Shown here piece by piece: positions 48,088 through 58,857 of a stretch of DNA of 64,000 nucleotides. Each line of letters starts with the position of its first letter. The stretch's first letter is position 1. Made by a program: the position numbers and the translations under genes. The notes below the pieces were generated by a model. It did not search any database and was not told the DNA's origin. It worked only from the letters and a program-made list of their open reading frames with translations. Where the stretch lies: assembly GCA_002722245.1 (NCBI GenBank), contig PBLA01000033.1, forward strand, positions 229,178-293,177, given 5' to 3'. This stretch comes from Flavobacteriales bacterium (GTDB lineage: Bacteria; Bacteroidota; Bacteroidia; Flavobacteriales_C; GCA-002722245).

Positions 48088-48822
48088 GTGCGATTATTTA
48101 TTATGGTTCAGGATATGTCAAAATATACGGAAGAAGATCTTGAAATTTGGAATTACCTATTTGATAATCAATATCATAACATTCAAGGGAAAGTTTGTTG
48201 GGAATATTTAGATTGCGTCCAACAACTCTCTTCCGCCTTAAATCCTCACGAAATCCCAAACTTTAATAAACTGAACGCTTTATTACATCTTAAAACAGGG
48301 TGGTCTATCCATATTGTTCCAGGTTTAATTGAACCCGATGAGTTTTTTAATCACTTAAAAAACAGAAGGTTTTGTTCATCCACCTGGCTAAGAAGTAAGG
48401 ATAAACTTCACTACATACAAGAACCCGATATGTTCCACGATATTTTTGGTCATATTCCTCTATTTGCCAATCAAGATTATGCCGACTTTGCACAAAAAAT
48501 AGGTGAGATGGCGCATCACTGGAAACACGATGAAGATAAAATTGCTCAAATACAAAGACTTTATTGGTTTACCATTGAATTTGGTGTCATAAGACGAAAA
48601 GGGGAACTTAAAAGTTATGGCGCGGGTATTATTTCCTCCATTGAGGAGGTGGATAAAGTACATAATCAGATAGGAGAATTCAGAGAATATGATACCATTG
48701 AAATACTAAACCGACCATTTAATATTGACACCGTTCAACCTACTTACTATGTAATAGACTCATTCTCTGATCTTTACGAATCACTCAATCAAGTTGAGCT
48801 TATTTTCTCAAACGCTGCTTAA
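48088..48822 (+). CDS. phhA: Phenylalanine 4-monooxygenase (start may be the second ATG at 48103)
   Basis: Strong similarity to bacterial PAH: GWSIHIVPGLIEPDEFF, EPDMFHDIFGHIPLF, YWFTIEFG. Confidence 0.85.
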   Translation: MRLFIMVQDMSKYTEEDLEIWNYLFDNQYHNIQGKVCWEYLDCVQQLSSALNPHEIPNFNKLNALLHLKTGWSIHIVPGLIEPDEFFNHLKNRRFCSSTWLRSKDKLHYIQEPDMFHDIFGHIPLFANQDYADFAQKIGEMAHHWKHDEDKIAQIQRLYWFTIEFGVIRRKGELKSYGAGIISSIEEVDKVHNQIGEFREYDTIEILNRPFNIDTVQPTYYVIDSFSDLYESLNQVELIFSNAA

Positions 48823-48837
48823 TCAAAAAAACGCTAT

Positions 48838-51018
48838 TTGTTAACCAATCAACGATTATCGTTCGCGGTACAAAGAATTAAATTGACTGATAATCAATGT
48901 TTTACTATTATAAAATTAGTAACGTGTAAAATTCTTGATATGGAAACTAATGATAACATTAACCCTGTTACGCATCTCGATAATCACGTAAAGGAAGTTA
49001 TTTCGGGAACTCGTAAATTCGAAAACATATACCAATCATTAACTAGACTTATTCTCGGCTCCAAGGATGAATTGAAGAAGGTTAATATCAATGGTAAATC
49101 AACCTTCGATTTTCAGGTGTTTCGTAATGGTGACAAACACATTGTAGGAATGCATGACGAATTAAATAGTTTTGTCTCCTACATTAAAGATGCGGCTGAG
49201 GGAGGCTCATCAAAAGAGATGTCATTTGTGCTCATTGGAGAACCCGGTAACGGAAAAACTTTTTTTGTTGATTATTTAAGTGCCTTATATCGTAAGTTCA
49301 TTGCAATCCCTGAAAATAACCGGTTTACATTTCAATTTAAAAATTTAGACAAACTTGGAAAGTATGGTCAATTGAATAGGATTGAATCTCAAACTTTTGA
49401 GGACCCGATGATTTTAGCAATGAATTTATTTGAGTCCAAATCAGATAACATTGATTATTTGCAAAAACTGGGAGCATCTGATGAGAACATTACAACGTTT
49501 TATACCAATTACAGACCTCTTGGGGCATGTTCCGATTATATTTTACAAGAAATAAAAGAGCACACGAATAATGATGTAGGTGTGATATTAGATCACTACA
49601 TCGACATCACAAAAGTACCTATCAGTGAGTCCAGAGGAACGCTTACAGGTAAGTATGCAGCTAAAGACAAAATCACCTCTTCGGCCGTTGATTTATTAGG
49701 TGAGGAATCAATATCAAGATTGTTACACATTACCGATACCAATAATCCCTATAGGTTTGACTTAAGAAGGGGTGCTTTAGCACGTGTTGCAGGTGGAGGA
49801 ATCCATTTTGCAGATGAAATCTTTAAAAATAAAAAAGATTTGGTTCAAGTTTATTTGGGAGTCATACAAAACCGAACCATTGAAATGGAAGGGTTTAAAT
49901 GGCCTTTAGATACCCTTATTGTCGCAACAAGTAATAATGCTGAGTTTGGTCGTTTCCTTGCAGAAAAAGAAGAAGCTCCAATCGTGGACAGATGTAGAAT
50001 TACCTATATGTCACACAACACCAACTATATACTTCAAAAAAAATTAACCGAATATGCATTGGGGAATCAGAATAAAACGAACTTTTTAAATGAAAAAATG
50101 CACGTAGATCCCAATTTGAATTATGCAATATCTACTGCAATTGTATTATCTCGAATGCCCAAATCCAATAAATTAACCCCTGTTGAGATGATGAAATTGG
50201 CTGCGGGAGAAACAGCAGGAGAAAAAAGTATTAAAACATTAAGTGAAGTTATTAATGAATTAAATAAAGATCCTGACATTACTAAACGCTTTGGCCAAAA
50301 AGGACTTGGGCATAGAAACCTTGGTAGGACACTACAAATTCTCTTGGAAAGATCAGAAACTCAAGAAGGCAAGTGTATGTACGCTGGTGATGTATTTATT
50401 GCCTTAGAGAGTGTTATTCTAGATTATGTAACGACTCCTGAAGACCGAACAAAATTCTTGAATGATTTAAAAATAGCGAAAGGTCTGCATCGAAAAAACA
50501 TAATGACCACCATTTTTAATGCCTATATGGATGAACCGCATGCGATAGAAAAAGATGTGATCAATTATGTGAACATGGTAATAGGAATTGATGCCAAAAA
50601 TTTGGGACCTGATAAAATATGGACCTATCACGATCCTCAGTCTGGAAAATTAGTGCCAATCAAAATAGATGAGGCCTTTATTGATAGTGTAGAATCAAGA
50701 TTAGGATTAGGTAATAAAGAACAAAAGCAAAGCTTCAGAACGACGATATCTAAAATTTACGGTCAAAAAATAGTGAAAGATCCAAACTATAATTTTATGG
50801 ATAATAACGACTTAGTAAAAGCGGTGACAGAAGTCCGATTAAAATCAGATATTGCTGGAGCGGGAAGTTTAGTTGGTGCGCTATCCAATCGAACCAATGA
50901 AGAAAACCAAAAATTATATAATCGGGTGTTAAATACAATGAGTAATAAACTAGGATATTGTAAAACATGTGCTTTAAAAACAATTGAATACTTCTGTACA
51001 CATGATGATGAAAACTAA
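48838..51018 (+). CDS. PrkA-family P-loop ATPase / Ser-kinase-like protein (YeaG homologue), copy 1
   Basis: Walker A VLIGEPGNGKTFF preceded by a PrkA-like N-domain; VAGGGIHFADEIFK and IVATSNNAEF mirror the PrkA ANRGF..VGTTNP region. Confidence 0.6.
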   Translation: MLTNQRLSFAVQRIKLTDNQCFTIIKLVTCKILDMETNDNINPVTHLDNHVKEVISGTRKFENIYQSLTRLILGSKDELKKVNINGKSTFDFQVFRNGDKHIVGMHDELNSFVSYIKDAAEGGSSKEMSFVLIGEPGNGKTFFVDYLSALYRKFIAIPENNRFTFQFKNLDKLGKYGQLNRIESQTFEDPMILAMNLFESKSDNIDYLQKLGASDENITTFYTNYRPLGACSDYILQEIKEHTNNDVGVILDHYIDITKVPISESRGTLTGKYAAKDKITSSAVDLLGEESISRLLHITDTNNPYRFDLRRGALARVAGGGIHFADEIFKNKKDLVQVYLGVIQNRTIEMEGFKWPLDTLIVATSNNAEFGRFLAEKEEAPIVDRCRITYMSHNTNYILQKKLTEYALGNQNKTNFLNEKMHVDPNLNYAISTAIVLSRMPKSNKLTPVEMMKLAAGETAGEKSIKTLSEVINELNKDPDITKRFGQKGLGHRNLGRTLQILLERSETQEGKCMYAGDVFIALESVILDYVTTPEDRTKFLNDLKIAKGLHRKNIMTTIFNAYMDEPHAIEKDVINYVNMVIGIDAKNLGPDKIWTYHDPQSGKLVPIKIDEAFIDSVESRLGLGNKEQKQSFRTTISKIYGQKIVKDPNYNFMDNNDLVKAVTEVRLKSDIAGAGSLVGALSNRTNEENQKLYNRVLNTMSNKLGYCKTCALKTIEYFCTHDDEN

Positions 51019-51020
51019 AC

Positions 51021-52280
51021 ATGAATCAGCATCAGAAAAGTCATATCAACCCTTTTATTGGGAAATCTTCCAATTTACGATTGGAGGAAATTGTATGGAA
51101 GAACCATTCGTACAACCCCGTTATTTCCCTTCAAACACTGGATGAATTATTAGAAAGGGATAACCAGAGGGAAGAAGATGGTTTTGAGCGGAAAATAAAA
51201 CTGGGTAAAATTGTTAAACCTAGCGAGAACGGTTCTAATGAAATTGTGATAGTTCCAACAACCATTGAAACAAAATTTTATCACGACAACTCAGTTACCA
51301 ATGAGGATGAAATGGTTGGGGGAACCGGAACAGAGGAAGAAGGAACCATTTTAGGGGAACAAAGAAATCAACCCGATGGAGAGGAAGGCGATGGAATGGG
51401 GCCTGGAAATGGAGAAGAAAAAGGCCATGATTTAAACTCAGATGCCTACAATCTTGGTAAGGTATTAACTAACCATTTTAACCTTCCTAATCTTCAGCAA
51501 AAAGGCATAAAAAAAAGTCTTACCCAGTATTCCTATGACCTCACAGATTTAAATAAAGGATTTGGACAGTTAATTGATAAAAAGCAAACCCTAAAAAGAG
51601 TCATTAAAACAAATATACTTTTGGGTAATATTAGTATTAATAAAGAACCTGATCTTTCTAAACTGATTAATTCTCCTCAGGACACGATATATAAAATTCT
51701 TTCCAGGGAGAAGAGTTATGAAACAGAGGCATTGGTTTTCTTTGTCCGAGATTATTCAGGATCCATGCAAGGAGCAGCTTCTGAAGCGGTGCTTACCCAA
51801 CACTTATTTTTATATAGTTGGTTAATGTACCAATACAACAAAAAAGTAAAAACCAAATTTATCCTGCATGATACAGAAGCCAAAGAGGTTCACGACTTTA
51901 ACACCTACTACCGGTCAAACGTGGCAGGAGGAACACAAATACATCCTGCTTTCAATTTAGTAAACACACTTATCGAAAACGAACAACTTCACCTTTCCAA
52001 TAATATTTATGTTTTTTATGGTTCCGACGGTGACGACTGGAAAGACAATAACAACACGTTAATTAAAGAATTAAAAAAACTCGCCGGATTCGTGAACCGA
52101 ATTGGAATTTTGGTTGCTCGAAATGCAAGTAGCAGTTTGCCCACAACGTTAGAAACAAACATTGAAGAATCAAATATATTAAGTGAATTACGCGATAAAC
52201 TCAAATTAAGTAGAGTAAACGCAAATGATTTTACCGAGGAACAAATAATTGATTCTATAAAATTCTTTCTTACGGTATGA
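51021..52280 (+). CDS. YhbH/YeaH (DUF444) family protein with a C-terminal vWA domain
   Basis: 419 aa; acidic/Gly-rich middle; vWA MIDAS-like DYSGSM. Confidence 0.6.
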   Translation: MNQHQKSHINPFIGKSSNLRLEEIVWKNHSYNPVISLQTLDELLERDNQREEDGFERKIKLGKIVKPSENGSNEIVIVPTTIETKFYHDNSVTNEDEMVGGTGTEEEGTILGEQRNQPDGEEGDGMGPGNGEEKGHDLNSDAYNLGKVLTNHFNLPNLQQKGIKKSLTQYSYDLTDLNKGFGQLIDKKQTLKRVIKTNILLGNISINKEPDLSKLINSPQDTIYKILSREKSYETEALVFFVRDYSGSMQGAASEAVLTQHLFLYSWLMYQYNKKVKTKFILHDTEAKEVHDFNTYYRSNVAGGTQIHPAFNLVNTLIENEQLHLSNNIYVFYGSDGDDWKDNNNTLIKELKKLAGFVNRIGILVARNASSSLPTTLETNIEESNILSELRDKLKLSRVNANDFTEEQIIDSIKFFLTV

Positions 52281-53866
52281 AATTAATTAATCAACATACC
52301 AAAAAAATTATGGAAGGGTGTAAAGAAAGAGCCCTCGATGCAGGACTAAGTTTCGACCGAGAAAGCCTTGAATACGTTGTTACTAATACAGACCTTATTG
52401 AGCTTCAGCCCAAAGTAATGATCCCAACAATGTACGATTTTTGGGTCAACGATATTCAAGTCATTCAAGGGAAAGAAAAATATAAAGTATATCCTCATAA
52501 CCCCTATGAAACCGTTATAAATTCACGACCAGCTATTTCATTTTATAATGATAATAATCCCGATTGGTTAAATGTGATGATTTTTTATCATGTGTTGGCA
52601 CACATTGATTTCTTCCAAAACAACCAACTCTTCTCCAACACTTGGAATGAAGATTTTGTTGGGAAGGCATTAGCCGACAAAAGACAAATATCCTCGCTTA
52701 GAAATAGACATGGTCGTTGGGTGGATTATATTATAGAATTTTCGCGAAGTATTGATAACCTCATTGGTTTTTTTCCCAATTTACAAGAAAGCATTACACC
52801 AACAGTTGGGAATGACATGGCCAGTTACTATTTCAATATTTTTTGTCAAAAAAACCTAAAACTCAACGAGCACTTTGTGTTCAATCAAATTGAACGCTAC
52901 AATAGTTTAATCAACAAAAACCCTCAGGTAGGTGAGGTACTTTTTTTCAATGAAATCATCAAAAAACATCCTGAATTTGAAATTGAATTTCAAAAGCACT
53001 TAACCTCAAGCAATACTGTGAAAAAAGATGTGATTGAATTCATTAGAGACCACTCTCCTTTTTTAAATAAAGAAGAGAACAAGTGGATGAAAACAGTCAT
53101 TAATATTATTCGCGACGCATCGCTTTATTTCAGCCCACAGATGAGAACAAAAATTATCAACGAAGGATGGGCCTCTTTTTGGCATGATCGGCTTTTTCGA
53201 TCAGATGACCGTATAAACGGGAACGAAATTCAATACGCAAAAATTAATGCTGCGGTAACCTCAATTAGCAGAGTGGGATTAAACCCATATGCAATAGGTC
53301 TTAGACTCATTCAAGAAGTAGAAGAACTTGGAAACAGAGGCATGCTTAGTCATGAATTCGACAAACTCAAAAATATTGAACAGCGCGAGCGCTTCAATAC
53401 GAATACAAACAAAGGACTCGATGCCATTTTTCATCTTAGAAAAAACTACTCTGATTTCACATTAATTAATGCCTTTGTCAATCAGGATTTTGTTACCAAA
53501 CACCAGCTCATGGTTATTGGAAAAAGAATCAATGAAGATCGTAACACTACAGAATACTATGTAAAAAGTAAAAAAGCATCTGATTATAAGAAAATGCTGT
53601 TAGACAGTTTATATCATCCTCCTTCAATCAAAATTGATGAAGTAAAAACGAACGATAAATGTCTTTATCTCATTCATGAATTTGAAGGGAAACAACTCTT
53701 AAAAAGCCACATAAAAAGTACCATGATGGGAATTGCATTTTTATGGGGGGGACATGTTGAATTAATCACAAATGAAATACGGCAAAATAAATCTGACGGA
53801 ACGAGCTGGCATAAAAAAATCATTTACAGTTACAAAAAAGGCACCTTATCAAAAGAAGAACTTTAA
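52277..53866 (+). CDS. SpoVR/YcgB family protein
   Basis: Signature MIFYHVLAHIDFFQNN matches the SpoVR AHVLAHxDFFKNN motif; 529 aa. Confidence 0.65.
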   Translation: MKLINQHTKKIMEGCKERALDAGLSFDRESLEYVVTNTDLIELQPKVMIPTMYDFWVNDIQVIQGKEKYKVYPHNPYETVINSRPAISFYNDNNPDWLNVMIFYHVLAHIDFFQNNQLFSNTWNEDFVGKALADKRQISSLRNRHGRWVDYIIEFSRSIDNLIGFFPNLQESITPTVGNDMASYYFNIFCQKNLKLNEHFVFNQIERYNSLINKNPQVGEVLFFNEIIKKHPEFEIEFQKHLTSSNTVKKDVIEFIRDHSPFLNKEENKWMKTVINIIRDASLYFSPQMRTKIINEGWASFWHDRLFRSDDRINGNEIQYAKINAAVTSISRVGLNPYAIGLRLIQEVEELGNRGMLSHEFDKLKNIEQRERFNTNTNKGLDAIFHLRKNYSDFTLINAFVNQDFVTKHQLMVIGKRINEDRNTTEYYVKSKKASDYKKMLLDSLYHPPSIKIDEVKTNDKCLYLIHEFEGKQLLKSHIKSTMMGIAFLWGGHVELITNEIRQNKSDGTSWHKKIIYSYKKGTLSKEEL

Positions 53867-56118
53867 TGAAAAAATCAAATGAAAATAATCAATCTGAAAA
53901 TCTACACGAGGCTTTAGAGCAACTCAGTAAGCATTTGGTAGAAAAGGAACGACTAAAACCTATTCCCTTTAGGAACTTTTTGGAATTAATCGTTGAAAAC
54001 CCTTACTCTACATTTCGAGATATTTTTCAGGTTTTTCATGATATGGTACATTTTTATGTAAAAGAACATAAAGAGAGAAGTAAAAATCTTTTTGCCGAAT
54101 CTTATTTTAAAAATTACAACTGTTATCCATTACTTCAAGACGGCTGCGACAATCCTTTTTTTGCTGATCGACTTTTCGCCAATCGTTTTATGAACCTAGT
54201 AAATGGGTTTAAAGATGGAACACGAACCAATCAAATTGTTCTTTTTGATGGTCCTCCAGGAAGTGGAAAAAGTACCTTTTTAAATAACCTTTTACACAAA
54301 TTGGAAGATTACACAAAAACGAATAATGGATCCATGTATTCTACCTACTGGAAATTAGATGTAGAAAAACTGGGAGGATTATCTCAAAGTGCACAAGAGA
54401 TTATTTCTACGATAAAAAAAGAAAAAACAAAAGTATATAATGAAAAATACCTGGAGTTCCTTTGTCCTAGCCATGATCATCCTATCTTACTCATACCCAA
54501 AGAATATCGAAAAACATTTTTAAGCAACTTAATTGATGATAAAGATGTTCTCAAAAGACTATTTAAAGAGAAACAATTTGAGTGGATTTTTAATGATGTA
54601 CCATGCAGTATTTGTAAGTCCTTATATAATGCTTTATTGGATAAGTTGGAAAATGCACAAGCCGTTTATAATATGGTTAATGCCAAAAAAGTTCGATTTA
54701 ATAGACAATTCGGCGATGGAATAAGCTTGTATAATCCAGGTGATCAAATCTATAAAAAGCCCATCACAAATAAACTACTTGAAGAAAAAATTAATAACCT
54801 CGTTAAAGGTGAGCATATTCATTTCATCTATTCCATTTTAGCAAAAACAAATAATGGCGTTTTCGCTTTAATGGATATCAAAGAAGAAAACATTAAACGA
54901 TTAATTCAACTTCATGGTGTTATTAGTGACGGTATTCATAAAGTAGAATTAATTGAAGAACGAATAAAGTCGTTATTTTTTGGACTTGTTAATCCCGGTG
55001 ATAAAGTACACTACTCGGATATTCCCTCTTTTAATGACCGAGTTGTTGAAGTTAAAATCCCTTATATTCTAGACTATAATATAGAGGTGTCAATTTATAA
55101 AAATCAACTTGGCGAGGGTATTGAAGAAGCCTTTCTCCCAGGAGTTCTTCAAAACTTTGCCAAAATAATGGTAAGTTCACGATTATCAGAGGAATCCAAA
55201 ACAATTAAAAATTGGATTCGAAAAGCAAGTGACTATAAAAATTATGTTGATAATGATTTTCATTTATTAAAAATGGAACTCTATTCAGGAACCATACCTT
55301 TCTGGTTAAAAGAGTCGGATATAAAAGCATTTGACTCCAATGTAAAAAGAGGACTTTTGAGAGAGTCCGAATCTGAAGGGAATTCAGGATTCACAGGAAG
55401 ACAAAGCATTAACATTTTCCGCAACTTTTTATCGCAATATAAAAAGCCAAATCACTTAATCACCATGGCGGAAGTGGAATCTTTTTTCGTGAAAAGTAAA
55501 ACGAAACTCTTTAAAGAACATATTGCAAGAGATTTCATATCATTTATGAAGAAAATGTACGATTTCAATCTATTACAAGAAATCAAAGAATGTATTTACT
55601 ATTACAATAAATCTCAAATTTCAAAAGATATTTTGAATTATATCTACGCATTAAGTTTTGATAAAGGAGAAGAAATTTTCAATCCTTACACGAAAGAAGT
55701 CATCAAAATTGACGACAATTTTTTCAGCTTATTTGAATCCGTTATTCTCTCCCAGGATGAAGAAGAAATAAAGATCTATCGGAAAGACATTCAAACCACT
55801 TATATATCTCAAACCTTAGCTCAGGAAATTCAAATTGAAGGCTTACCAATTGAAGAAACGACACTTTATAAAAAAATCCTAGACAGATATACCCGAAGCC
55901 TCAAAAAAAATGCCTTAACACCATTTGTAGAAAATGAAAACTTTAGAAGGGCATTACTTGACTATGAATCGGAGTTATTCTCCAAATACGATATTCGTTT
56001 GAAAAATAGTGTAACCCACCTTATTACAAACCTAATCAATAAATATGGCTATACAATGGAAGGTGCTATTCAAGTCTCAATCTATCTGGTAGATAACAAA
56101 TTGTATTTATCCAACTAA
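53866..56118 (+). CDS. Second PrkA-family P-loop ATPase paralog
   Basis: FADRLFANRFMNLVNGF...IVLFDGPPGSGKSTF (PrkA N-domain plus Walker A); ILAKTNNGVFALMDIKEEN mirrors the PrkA ANRGF region. Confidence 0.55.
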   Translation: MKKSNENNQSENLHEALEQLSKHLVEKERLKPIPFRNFLELIVENPYSTFRDIFQVFHDMVHFYVKEHKERSKNLFAESYFKNYNCYPLLQDGCDNPFFADRLFANRFMNLVNGFKDGTRTNQIVLFDGPPGSGKSTFLNNLLHKLEDYTKTNNGSMYSTYWKLDVEKLGGLSQSAQEIISTIKKEKTKVYNEKYLEFLCPSHDHPILLIPKEYRKTFLSNLIDDKDVLKRLFKEKQFEWIFNDVPCSICKSLYNALLDKLENAQAVYNMVNAKKVRFNRQFGDGISLYNPGDQIYKKPITNKLLEEKINNLVKGEHIHFIYSILAKTNNGVFALMDIKEENIKRLIQLHGVISDGIHKVELIEERIKSLFFGLVNPGDKVHYSDIPSFNDRVVEVKIPYILDYNIEVSIYKNQLGEGIEEAFLPGVLQNFAKIMVSSRLSEESKTIKNWIRKASDYKNYVDNDFHLLKMELYSGTIPFWLKESDIKAFDSNVKRGLLRESESEGNSGFTGRQSINIFRNFLSQYKKPNHLITMAEVESFFVKSKTKLFKEHIARDFISFMKKMYDFNLLQEIKECIYYYNKSQISKDILNYIYALSFDKGEEIFNPYTKEVIKIDDNFFSLFESVILSQDEEEIKIYRKDIQTTYISQTLAQEIQIEGLPIEETTLYKKILDRYTRSLKKNALTPFVENENFRRALLDYESELFSKYDIRLKNSVTHLITNLINKYGYTMEGAIQVSIYLVDNKLYLSN

Positions 56119-56172: not shown

Positions 56173-58857
56173 ATGCAGAACAAGGTTAACCCTCACATTC
56201 AATTTTTCACCGACTGTTACAAAGCGGAAAACAACTCATTCTATATTCAAGATTTTCTCAACAATAAAATTGAACACAAACATTGGGAGAAAAACGAAGA
56301 ATTACTTAACCATAATTTACCCATTATTCCAATTCCTGAACAATATGCAAAAAAGATAATTGCATCAGAATTAATGTATGGACAAGAAAAGGAGTTACTT
56401 TATTGTTCCTTATTCTTAATTGGAAATGGACTTGGATTAGATGGAAAAAAACAAAGGATATGTTCTCCGCTATTAATTTTCAAAGCAAAATGCTTTAAAA
56501 AGGATGAATTCCATTATGTAAAATTGGATTATACCTCTGGTTTTTTTAATTCACAAGCTTTAAATGCAGCAGGTTCAAAAAATGGAGAGATAGATCTTGA
56601 ACAAATACTTTCTAAAATAGATTTATCACAACCGATCACAGTTGGAGAAATTGGAAGAATAGTTGATACTATTCAAATTGAATACTCTAATATAAATGCT
56701 GACGATTTACTTCTATACCCTCAATATATTGAACCTGCTAAAATTAAGACCAGAATTTCCAACCTTAAAAATGGAACTTTTGAACTAATAAATGCCGCCT
56801 CTCTGGCCATTGTATCAAAATCAAAAAATGCGCGAGAAATTTTATTTGAGTTAGAGGAACTATGCAAAAAAGGAAACTACTCAAATGTAATTAATGGATT
56901 AATTAATAGAACGAAGGAAGTTCCTAAATTAGATTCCAAACCATTAACCACTGCAACTTTAAGCCAAGCACAAACAAAATGTTTAATTAATGCAAACAGT
57001 TATACCAACAGTGTGATTGTGGGTCCACCTGGTACGGGTAAATCGTTCACAATAGCAAATATTGCGTTAGATCAAATGTCTAAAGGGAAGTCTGTTTTAA
57101 TCATATCTAAAACTTCAGAAGCTGTTGGAGTTCTAAAGCAAATTATCAAAAGCGAATTCAATGCTAATAACTCTATTATTGACTTAAGTCAATCCCTTCG
57201 GTTTATAAAAAATAGATTGGAAAAACTTGAATGGAATCTGTTAAAGTTGGAGAAAAAAAAGAGTTCATCAAAGATAAAAATGGATATAAATGATGCGAAT
57301 GATTTATTAAATAATTTAGCATCTAATTTTACAAAAAAATCAAAAAAAGAAATACATTGGTCATCCAAATATTTAAACAATCAAAAATCTGTTTTTATAA
57401 ATTTAAAAGAGAAATGGAAAAAACTTCTAAACAACCACTCTATTCCCTTTTGGAAAATTATCTACTCTATCCAAATCGTACAAGAACAAAGAGAGAATTA
57501 TGCCCGACAATATTTTAATGCACTCGGAATAGAGAAACTTCTTAAAGGAAGAAAAGCATATTATAATTCTTTAAAATTTTTCTCCAAAGTATTAAGTGCT
57601 AGAACAGGTAGAAAAAGAAAAGAATATTATCAAAACATTCGCATAAGCGAACTACAAGCAACATTTCCAATTTGGCTTTCCAAATTATCTGGACTCTCTA
57701 AATGTTTACCACTCGATGAAAATCAATTTGATTTAGTAATCATTGACGAAGCCTCCCAATGTGATATACCATCTTGTTTACCTGCTCTACAAAGGGCAAA
57801 AAGGGCAGTATTCGTTGGCGATCCTAAACAACTTCGATTTATATCGTTTATGCCCAAATTCAAAGAACATTCTCTTCAGGAAAAACATAATGTCTTTGCG
57901 GATTATAAAGGTAATTCCATTCTAGATTTTGCCATTGACAGTCTCCAAGAATCTGATCAGATTGTCATGCTAAACGAACACTTTAGATGTCACCCTTCCA
58001 TCATAAACTTTAGTAACGAAGAGTTTTACTTCAAAGGGCTAAATGTAATGAAACTGACCCCTTCTTCGCATCAAAATTCCAAACAACTCTTCCAAAGAAT
58101 AAATGGAAAAAGAACTAAAGCTGGAGTAAACAAAGAAGAAATTGATTACATCATTGAAGAAATCAAAAAGATTATTGAAGAAGAAGTTTTACTTGCCCGT
58201 AAGATGAAAACTAAAATTGGTATTATATCTCCATTTAGACATCAAGCAGATGCCATTGCGAAAGTATTGATAGATTCATTTACCTCAGAAGAAATAAACA
58301 AACACCAAATAAGATGCTCAACGCCCTACTCTTTCCAAGGTCAAGAACGAGATATAATTTTTATTTCTATTTCATTAGATGGTGATTCCCATGGATCGGC
58401 TTTTGCCTACATGAATAAAGAAGATGTATTTAATGTTTGTGTTACTCGAGCAAAACATAAGCAAGTAGTAGTTTATTCTTTTGATATGGAAACTTTAGCT
58501 AATCATCATTTAATAAAAAAAATGTACCAGCTCGAACTGAAAGAAGATCAAAAATGGATAAAACCAACAGAGGAAAAAGATGCCTTTTCAAAAGAAATCA
58601 TAAAAACATTGGAAAATATGAAGTTTGAAATTTTTCCTCGTTTTCAATTTTCCTCGTTAGATGTGGATCTATTAGTTAAACGAAATAATCGATTTATAGG
58701 AATTGACTTAATTGGCTATCCTGGGGAAATGGCTTCTGAATTTAAATTGGAACGATACAGCATGTTAAACAGAGCTGGATTTAAAACATATCCTCTGCCT
58801 TATTCTTATTGGAAGCTAAATAAAGAAAACGTGATAGATGAATTGAAAAGGCTTTAA
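56173..58857 (+). CDS. SF1 (Upf1/DNA2/NAM7-like, AAA_11/AAA_12) helicase fused to a C-terminal DUF559/Vsr-like PD-(D/E)xK endonuclease domain
   Basis: Walker A VIVGPPGTGKSF; Walker B/motif II LVIIDEASQCD; QR-finger region; C-terminal FQFSSLDVDLLVKRNNRFIGIDLIGYP... resembles DUF559. Confidence 0.65.
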   Translation: MQNKVNPHIQFFTDCYKAENNSFYIQDFLNNKIEHKHWEKNEELLNHNLPIIPIPEQYAKKIIASELMYGQEKELLYCSLFLIGNGLGLDGKKQRICSPLLIFKAKCFKKDEFHYVKLDYTSGFFNSQALNAAGSKNGEIDLEQILSKIDLSQPITVGEIGRIVDTIQIEYSNINADDLLLYPQYIEPAKIKTRISNLKNGTFELINAASLAIVSKSKNAREILFELEELCKKGNYSNVINGLINRTKEVPKLDSKPLTTATLSQAQTKCLINANSYTNSVIVGPPGTGKSFTIANIALDQMSKGKSVLIISKTSEAVGVLKQIIKSEFNANNSIIDLSQSLRFIKNRLEKLEWNLLKLEKKKSSSKIKMDINDANDLLNNLASNFTKKSKKEIHWSSKYLNNQKSVFINLKEKWKKLLNNHSIPFWKIIYSIQIVQEQRENYARQYFNALGIEKLLKGRKAYYNSLKFFSKVLSARTGRKRKEYYQNIRISELQATFPIWLSKLSGLSKCLPLDENQFDLVIIDEASQCDIPSCLPALQRAKRAVFVGDPKQLRFISFMPKFKEHSLQEKHNVFADYKGNSILDFAIDSLQESDQIVMLNEHFRCHPSIINFSNEEFYFKGLNVMKLTPSSHQNSKQLFQRINGKRTKAGVNKEEIDYIIEEIKKIIEEEVLLARKMKTKIGIISPFRHQADAIAKVLIDSFTSEEINKHQIRCSTPYSFQGQERDIIFISISLDGDSHGSAFAYMNKEDVFNVCVTRAKHKQVVVYSFDMETLANHHLIKKMYQLELKEDQKWIKPTEEKDAFSKEIIKTLENMKFEIFPRFQFSSLDVDLLVKRNNRFIGIDLIGYPGEMASEFKLERYSMLNRAGFKTYPLPYSYWKLNKENVIDELKRL

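Follow-up and report, generated by a model that had tools for sequence, protein, structure and literature searches.

The window analysed here, i.e. the whole stretch of 64,000 nucleotides of the Flavobacteriales contig PBLA01000033.1, contains on its plus strand a tightly packed cluster of four genes, in which a gene of the PrkA family, a DUF444 gene and a SpoVR gene are followed by a second gene of the PrkA family. The first three are adjacent, co-directional and in the order PrkA, DUF444, SpoVR, that is, in the arrangement by which the conserved three-gene operon is recognized. The four genes (genes 1 to 4 hereafter) are located as follows:

48940..51018, plus strand: gene 1, PrkA-family AAA+ protein, 692 amino acids (Pfam and homolog alignment)
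51021..52280, plus strand: gene 2, DUF444 / YeaH-YhbH family, 419 amino acids (Pfam, NCBIfam)
52277..53866, plus strand: gene 3, SpoVR / YcgB family, 529 amino acids (Pfam)
53866..56118, plus strand: gene 4, second PrkA-family AAA+ protein, long 'PrkA2' type, 750 amino acids (Pfam)

Both the packing and the families had been proposed in an earlier reading of the same sequence (the original prediction), and both are borne out. The open reading frames and all three junctions can be read directly in the sequence: the stop codon of gene 1 (TAA, 51016-51018) is separated by the dinucleotide AC from the ATG of gene 2 at 51021, genes 2 and 3 overlap by ATGA (52277-52280), and genes 3 and 4 are joined as TAATG, the A at 53866 being common to both. 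The Pfam assignments confirm the PrkA, DUF444 and SpoVR identity of the triad and place the fourth gene, which had been described as a divergent PrkA-like gene, in the PrkA family and in no other ATPase family. The SpoVR signature HxxxHxDFF, pointed out earlier as the string MIFYHVLAHIDFFQNN, is indeed present in the translation of gene 3 (as YHVLAHIDFF). What had to be corrected is the start of gene 1: the TTG at 48838 merely begins the longest open reading frame, and the real start is the ATG at 48940, because the homologs of gene 1 are 690-695 amino acids long (identity 73-96%) and align from that ATG.

The two genes in the middle are readily assigned. Gene 2 matches the Pfam family DUF444 (PF04285) with 108.5 bits at a cutoff of 27, and falls in the YeaH subfamily (NCBIfam NF003712, 509.3 bits versus a cutoff of 421). 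Its translation contains FFVRDYSGSM, which includes the motif DYSGS (DxSxS) that resembles a metal-ion-dependent adhesion site (MIDAS). The protein is a putative von Willebrand factor A (vWA) protein, a label that follows PMC3188799 and general knowledge; the Pfam VWA models gave no match to it even at an E-value of 10, and a comparison with the PDB yielded no relative. Gene 3 matches SpoVR (PF04293) over residues 9-438 (196.8 bits versus a cutoff of 27), and SpoVR_C with 21.3 bits, i.e. under the cutoff of 27.6; it is not a YcgB equivalog (NF008737, 96.5 bits versus a cutoff of 679). The median identity of the homologs to the window protein is 53% for gene 2 and 58% for gene 3.

Two PrkA-family proteins in one cluster

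The products of genes 1 and 4 score almost equally against the PrkA C-terminal domain of Pfam (118.1 and 116.8 bits, respectively, at a cutoff of 25; profile positions from 3 to 254/255), and both match the AAA_PrkA domain in part (cutoff 25), with 47.5 bits over profile positions 173-355 of 358 for gene 1 and 29.7 bits over positions 118-356 of 358 for gene 4. Gene 1 in addition matches AAA_5 (26.2 bits), a dynein/MoxR-related family. Neither protein is an equivalog of YeaG, as the corresponding model (NCBIfam PRK15455, NF011999) scores 36.9 bits for gene 1, versus a cutoff of 576, and does not match gene 4 at all. In a direct BLASTP comparison the two proteins find each other with an E-value of 0.038, and a trimmed multiple alignment gives an identity of ~15% between them and of ~19-20% to canonical PrkA. 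Upon neighbour-joining, gene 1 and gene 4 fall in separate clades with a bootstrap support of 100% each, next to a canonical clade (99-100%). The low identity and the E-value of 0.038 indicate that gene 1 and gene 4 are anciently diverged paralogs and not recent duplicates. An hhalign alignment of the two family profiles did not extend beyond the N-terminal P-loop region (94% probability); because the profiles are of low diversity (an effective number of sequences of 1.5), it says nothing about the remainder of the protein.

The residues associated with ATP binding and hydrolysis have been kept on both sides of this divergence. The Walker A Lys, an acidic residue in Walker B, the sensor-1 Asn and an Arg are found in all PrkA clades that were aligned (including YeaG and the Thermomicrobium PrkA). 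In the gene 1 family they correspond to the invariant residues K106 (Walker A, GEPGNGKT), D292-E293 (Walker B), N332 (sensor-1) and R351, and in the gene 4 family to K135 (Walker A, GPPGSGKS), D337, N376 (sensor-1) and R392, which are likewise invariant. The clades differ in the Walker B motif, which is a classical DE in gene 1 (a gain of that protein), a single Glu in canonical PrkA and a single Asp that is not followed by Glu (LMDIK) in gene 4; the long paralogs discussed below also have a single Asp. The motif G-x-x-G-x-x-x-R of the supposed kinase domain is present in both copies, yet to our knowledge no catalytic residues have been defined for that domain.

A second set of motifs is distributed in a complementary manner. 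Canonical PrkAs (Thermomicrobium PrkA, the first PrkA of the archaeal locus L014 described below and the protein of PDB entry 9xip) often have an N-terminal C-x3-H...CxxC motif plus a C-terminal CxxC. Gene 4 keeps only the N-terminal site (C200-x4-H205...C247-x2-C250, invariant in its family and present as a C/H/C/C site in several canonical PrkAs as well) and is without the C-terminal CxxC, whereas gene 1 keeps only the C-terminal site (C674-x2-C677...C686) and is without the N-terminal one. Such complementary retention would fit subfunctionalisation after duplication.

The two proteins also differ strongly in their rate of change. The homologs of gene 1 have a median identity to the window protein of 75% and a mean column identity in the family alignment of 83%, versus 48% and 62% for gene 4, which evolves much faster. 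By bit score gene 1 is closest to the Thermomicrobium PrkA (78 bits), but its identity to canonical PrkA is just ~19%, in contrast to 73-78% within the Fibrobacteres-Chlorobi-Bacteroidetes (FCB) group, and in the neighbour-joining tree its clade has a very long stem, from which only very short branches arise. The long stem and the high identity within the FCB group imply a burst of change and then very strong constraint. Gene 1 is likely to be the strongly constrained counterpart of canonical PrkA. The family of gene 4 is compact, with 120 cluster representatives at an E-value of 1e-30 or better in a search of the full library. Beyond that family, the next relatives are proteins of 740-766 amino acids (P0384, P0386 and P0389; 23-25% identity), to which gene 4 is closest by bit score as well (100-115 bits). 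A Foldseek search with the model of gene 4 against the PDB returned no match (best E-value 0.4). On contig L015 (5167-10815) a lone long PrkA paralog is found between the genes of a Hanks-type Ser/Thr kinase and of a diadenylate cyclase (DAC).

Distribution, composition and genomic surroundings of the cluster

Homologs of both PrkA-family proteins are numerous, with lower bounds of >2700 for gene 4 and >4300 for gene 1, and are commonly annotated as 'serine protein kinase PrkA'. Those that carry a name belong mostly to Flavobacteriales, Bacteroidales, Marinilabiliales, Microscillaceae and Kapabacteria, or are listed as generic Bacteroidota. Homologs named Desulfobulbaceae, Chloroflexia and Hyphomicrobiales, i.e. 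from outside the FCB group, are located on short contigs and show 75-78% identity; they are likely to be binning errors.

The order gene 1, DUF444, SpoVR, gene 4 recurs in four marine Flavobacteriales metagenome-assembled genomes (L001-L004), these four being what a scan of genome contigs with a single protein query yielded, and it is identical in Eisenibacter elegans (Cytophagales, L005), in a Kapabacteria genome (L007) and on contigs binned as Zixibacteria (L011) and Delongbacteria (L012). A metagenome sample provided 79 loci with a gene of the gene 4 type, and those in which the upstream sequence spans 5.2 kb or more (45 loci) were assessed. Full collinearity was found in 30 of the 45, and in six others SpoVR, or DUF444 together with SpoVR, is still adjacent, be it with insertions. 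Among seven loci that were anchored on gene 1, five are complete, one has genes 1 and 2 only and one has gene 1 alone. At the junction between SpoVR and gene 4, start and stop still overlap or lie just a few nucleotides apart in the window, in L001, L007, L011 and L012, and in the archaeal locus L014.

That archaeal locus extends the comparison beyond the bacteria. The long paralog P0389 is encoded on contig L014 (29% GC, i.e. guanine plus cytosine), beside an archaeal aIF5B gene (TIGR00491, 676 bits versus a cutoff of 555), and it is the last gene of a series PrkA (699 amino acids), DUF444, SpoVR, PrkA (766 amino acids) with overlaps of 4 nt, after which a ClpP-family gene follows. The window and L014 are alike in gene order, in the overlaps of start and stop codons and in the fourth gene, since that of L014 is likewise a long paralog and matches gene 4 over its full length (116 bits). 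They differ in the first PrkA, which in L014 belongs to the canonical type (34% identity to Thermomicrobium PrkA, E-value 4.5e-196 to PDB 9xip) and in the window (gene 1) is highly derived, and in the ClpP-family gene. Gene 1 of the window thus takes the place that canonical PrkA has in L014. As an archaeon has it too, the layout with a canonical-side copy first and a long paralog fourth is an old one. The ClpP-family protease gene of L014 (11307-12011) starts 13 nt after the long paralog, which is worth recording because a protease activity of PrkA is under dispute.

Several relatives show individual deviations. A gene for a periplasmic-type SBP_bac_3 protein is inserted between DUF444 and SpoVR in L012 (13399-14127), and two small open reading frames lie between gene 1 and DUF444 in L005 (3704-4327). 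In L004 (8001-10239) tblastn finds the gene 4 homolog in two segments, with the break near residue 297, owing to a frameshift or an assembly error. In the Kapabacteria locus L007 (10862-17735) the cluster is directly followed by three consecutive genes that encode TPR and SpoIIE (PP2C phosphatase) domains. A supposed fusion of DUF444 and SpoVR in L096 was rejected, as the protein of 904 amino acids found there is unrelated.

In composition the cluster is like its host. The GC content of genes 1 to 4 is 0.31-0.36 (0.31-0.38 in the rest of the window), that at third codon positions (GC3) is 0.27-0.33 (rest 0.20-0.36), and the codon-usage distance from the window mean is 0.031-0.053 (rest 0.032-0.097), which places the four genes among the lowest distances in the window. 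Because GC content, GC3 and codon usage all match the host range, there is no sign of recent transfer. The cluster has probably been inherited vertically.

Three further features border the cluster:

48088-48822, plus strand: phenylalanine 4-monooxygenase (phenylalanine hydroxylase) gene (NF008877, 248.9 bits versus a cutoff of 247)
48883..48911, plus strand: promoter-like motif TTGACT-N17-TATTAT, 5' of gene 1 (consensus scan)
56173-58857, plus strand: gene 5, superfamily 1 helicase (AAA_11/AAA_12) with a C-terminal REase_MTES_1575-like nuclease domain, 894 amino acids

Synteny of the hydroxylase gene with the cluster extends to close relatives within the Flavobacteriales (L001-L004, L017, L018 and L020). 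A spacer of 117 nt separates it from gene 1, and within that spacer lies the promoter-like motif, the TTGAC and TA-TATA blocks of which are retained in three close relatives (L001, L002 and L004). The motif looks sigma-70-like and is unlike the usual Bacteroidota promoter. Bacteroidota mostly use a consensus other than TTGACT/TATTAT. Promoter and terminator scans of the region gave counts no higher than in shuffled sequence, and the motif is perhaps a candidate promoter of gene 1. An Rfam search of the window found no RNA family. Gene 5 starts 54 nt after gene 4 and is probably a variable insertion, because it is absent beside the cluster in every relative locus examined.

Proposed function and competing explanations

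What is known of the module comes from its three-gene form. In Rhizobium etli the operon, which encodes a vWA protein and SpoVR besides PrkA, is induced at growth arrest under the control of (p)ppGpp and sigma-54 (PMC3188799), and yeaG, yeaH and ycgB show strong conserved cofitness (bioRxiv 10.1101/072470). For the B. subtilis PrkA an ATPase activity that depends on the Walker A Lys and a slow Lon-like protease activity have been reported (PMC9512850), and the B. anthracis PrkA was described as an AAA+ ATPase whose protease and kinase activities are negligible (PMC13001217).

We consider it probable (roughly 0.75) that genes 1 to 4 form a co-transcribed operon and that this operon represents the standard FCB-group form of the PrkA/DUF444/SpoVR starvation and stationary-phase module, i.e. 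a form that is vertically inherited and contains two ancient PrkA ATPases that cooperate. In such a system the PrkA proteins may be MoxR-like AAA+ motors whose partners are SpoVR and the vWA/MIDAS protein DUF444, and in growth arrest they would all serve to remodel protein targets or to process them. The products of genes 1 and 4 would act together, either within one ring of mixed composition or as two rings that cooperate, and would have divided their functions. Cooperation appears most likely because both proteins keep the residues for ATP binding and hydrolysis, because of the translational coupling and because the two genes usually co-occur.

A number of observations weigh against this interpretation. 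Published accounts disagree on whether PrkA acts as a kinase, as a protease or solely as an ATPase (PMC9512850, PMC13001217). The AlphaFold2 model of gene 1 is weak (a pLDDT confidence score of 51, poor in the AAA+ core) and in that of gene 4 (pLDDT 73) the AAA+ core is disordered. The neighbour-joining tree unites gene 1 with canonical PrkA and the long paralogs with gene 4, at a bootstrap support of only 24-28% for this deep order of the clades. Finally, the partnership is not obligatory in terms of gene order, as follows from the lone genes: gene 4 stands alone, with no triad gene within 8 kb, in nine of the 45 assessed loci, two gene 1 loci (L096 and L097) have no gene 4 nearby, and in Planctomycetes the long paralogs of 740-766 amino acids sit as lone genes.

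A more far-reaching version of the preferred reading is possible and at present rather doubtful. In it, an ancestral PrkA would have undergone subfunctionalisation, and the FCB module would now be an AAA+ machine with two obligatory subunits, gene 1 being the catalytic core and gene 4 a faster-evolving adaptor or regulator. If it were true, the first-and-fourth order that the FCB group has in common with an archaeon would constitute a second, ancient architecture of the YeaG/YeaH/YcgB system.

The lone genes also speak for the opposite view, namely that gene 4 encodes a functionally independent AAA+ protein that happens to lie beside the triad, like its lone relatives in Planctomycetes and on one other contig, and the much faster evolution of gene 4 is in line with it. 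We nevertheless find this improbable, given that gene 4 directly follows SpoVR in 36 of the 45 loci, that the tight junction between the two genes is kept in all six loci named above and that the long copy takes the same fourth position on both sides of the divide between bacteria and archaea.

Still less probable is a division of labour in which gene 4 would be a catalytically dead, regulatory pseudo-ATPase, comparable to the AAA+ half of BchD, which is inactive too, and would provide gene 1 with a scaffold. The missing Glu in the Walker B motif of gene 4, versus the DE of gene 1, and the low AlphaFold confidence around Walker A and Walker B could be explained in this way. However, canonical PrkA, for which ATPase activity was measured, has one acidic residue at that position too, the low pLDDT may just reflect a shallow alignment, and K135, D337, N376 and R392 are invariant in the gene 4 family.

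The original prediction had interpreted the cluster as a horizontally acquired triad with a duplicated PrkA and as content that is atypical for Bacteroidota. It rightly set the arrangement apart from the canonical one, and the layout is indeed unlike the three-gene one of Bacillus, unlike E. coli yeaGH plus ycgB and unlike the three-gene operons of Thermomicrobium and Rhizobium; the GC content of gene 4 (0.311) is moreover slightly under that of genes 1 to 3. Yet a recent duplication is contradicted by the ~15% identity of the copies, the E-value of 0.038 and the two separate clades with full bootstrap support. An acquisition by transfer conflicts with the recurrence of the gene order across orders and sister phyla and in most of the metagenome loci, with codon-usage distances and GC3 values that are within the range of the window, and with the synteny of the upstream phenylalanine hydroxylase gene in the relatives. 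Nor can the triad be called atypical for Bacteroidota, considering the thousands of homologs of each paralog that mostly bear Bacteroidota names, and the arrangement is not unusual either: the four-gene order is common in FCB lineages and a cluster with two PrkA genes was already reported in haloarchaea (PMC3102087), an outcome that the original prediction had itself named as refuting it. We therefore regard a recent duplication or transfer as very unlikely. The change in stoichiometry or regulation that the original prediction also suggested is plausible. The faintest case is that for an anti-phage defence island made up of genes 1 to 4 and gene 5, since the matches of gene 5 to the MkoA, MkoC, Hhe and ProA models are partial, confined to their helicase parts and far below the family cutoffs, since gene 5 lies beside the cluster in none of the relatives examined, and since genes 1 to 4 have no meaningful PADLOC matches (E-values of 4.5e-4 to 1.4e-3 over no more than the length of a P-loop, the best ~30 residues).

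The PrkA/YeaG, YeaH and YcgB/SpoVR module is among the most widespread bacterial clusters of unresolved function, and the window documents a superphylum-wide version of it with two ATPases in a fixed order, one very constrained paralog and complementary Cys/His motifs. The fixed pair and the complementary motifs could steer biochemical work, for instance by suggesting that both paralogs be co-expressed.

Relation to known systems

The closest proteins of known structure are those of the PDB entries 9xip, 9xiq and 9xir ('Serine protein kinase', 692 amino acids), a PrkA of the canonical type that is matched by gene 1 with an E-value of 2.8e-11 and by gene 4 with one of 3e-13. The N-terminal CPxH...CxxC motif of 9xip is common to gene 4. 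For the rest the similarity to the window proteins is remote, i.e. too distant for confident sequence-based modelling, and our literature searches retrieved no paper for these entries.

At the level of mechanism, a comparison can be made with the MoxR-type AAA+ ATPases, which pair with vWA proteins, as in RavA-ViaA and in BchI with BchD; BchI and BchD also show that a single machine can contain two diverged AAA+ subunits. The window resembles these pairs, by analogy only, in that a P-loop AAA+ protein (gene 1, with its match to AAA_5) is encoded beside a protein with a MIDAS-like DxSxS motif. It differs from them in the large family-specific C-terminal domain of PrkA and in SpoVR, which has no counterpart there. 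We know of no PrkA protein for which a role in metal insertion or as a chaperone has been shown.

With the three-gene module, as present in Proteobacteria (E. coli yeaGH plus ycgB, Rhizobium etli), Thermomicrobium and Firmicutes, the window has in common the three families, their order and orientation and the tight packing, and the AAA+ catalytic residues of the module are conserved in the window copies too. The differences are the presence of a second PrkA as the fourth gene and the great distance of both window PrkA copies from YeaG.

Literature searches (on a Bacteroidota version and on prkA1/prkA2) found no paper that describes the Bacteroidota version of the cluster. In haloarchaea, however, a cluster of two PrkA genes, DUF444 and SpoVR has been described as conserved in all members of the group (2011, PMC3102087), so that the combination of two PrkA genes with DUF444 and SpoVR is lineage-wide there as well. 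All PrkA loci that a tblastn search against plasmids returned are of the canonical three-gene form, none of them from haloarchaea, and the comparison with the haloarchaeal cluster is one by description only: its PrkA genes are described as adjacent, whereas they are first and fourth in the window, in all FCB loci and in L014. With respect to these known systems, the cluster in the window is an ordinary and typical example of a four-gene cluster that is widespread and has been annotated before, and not a new kind of system.

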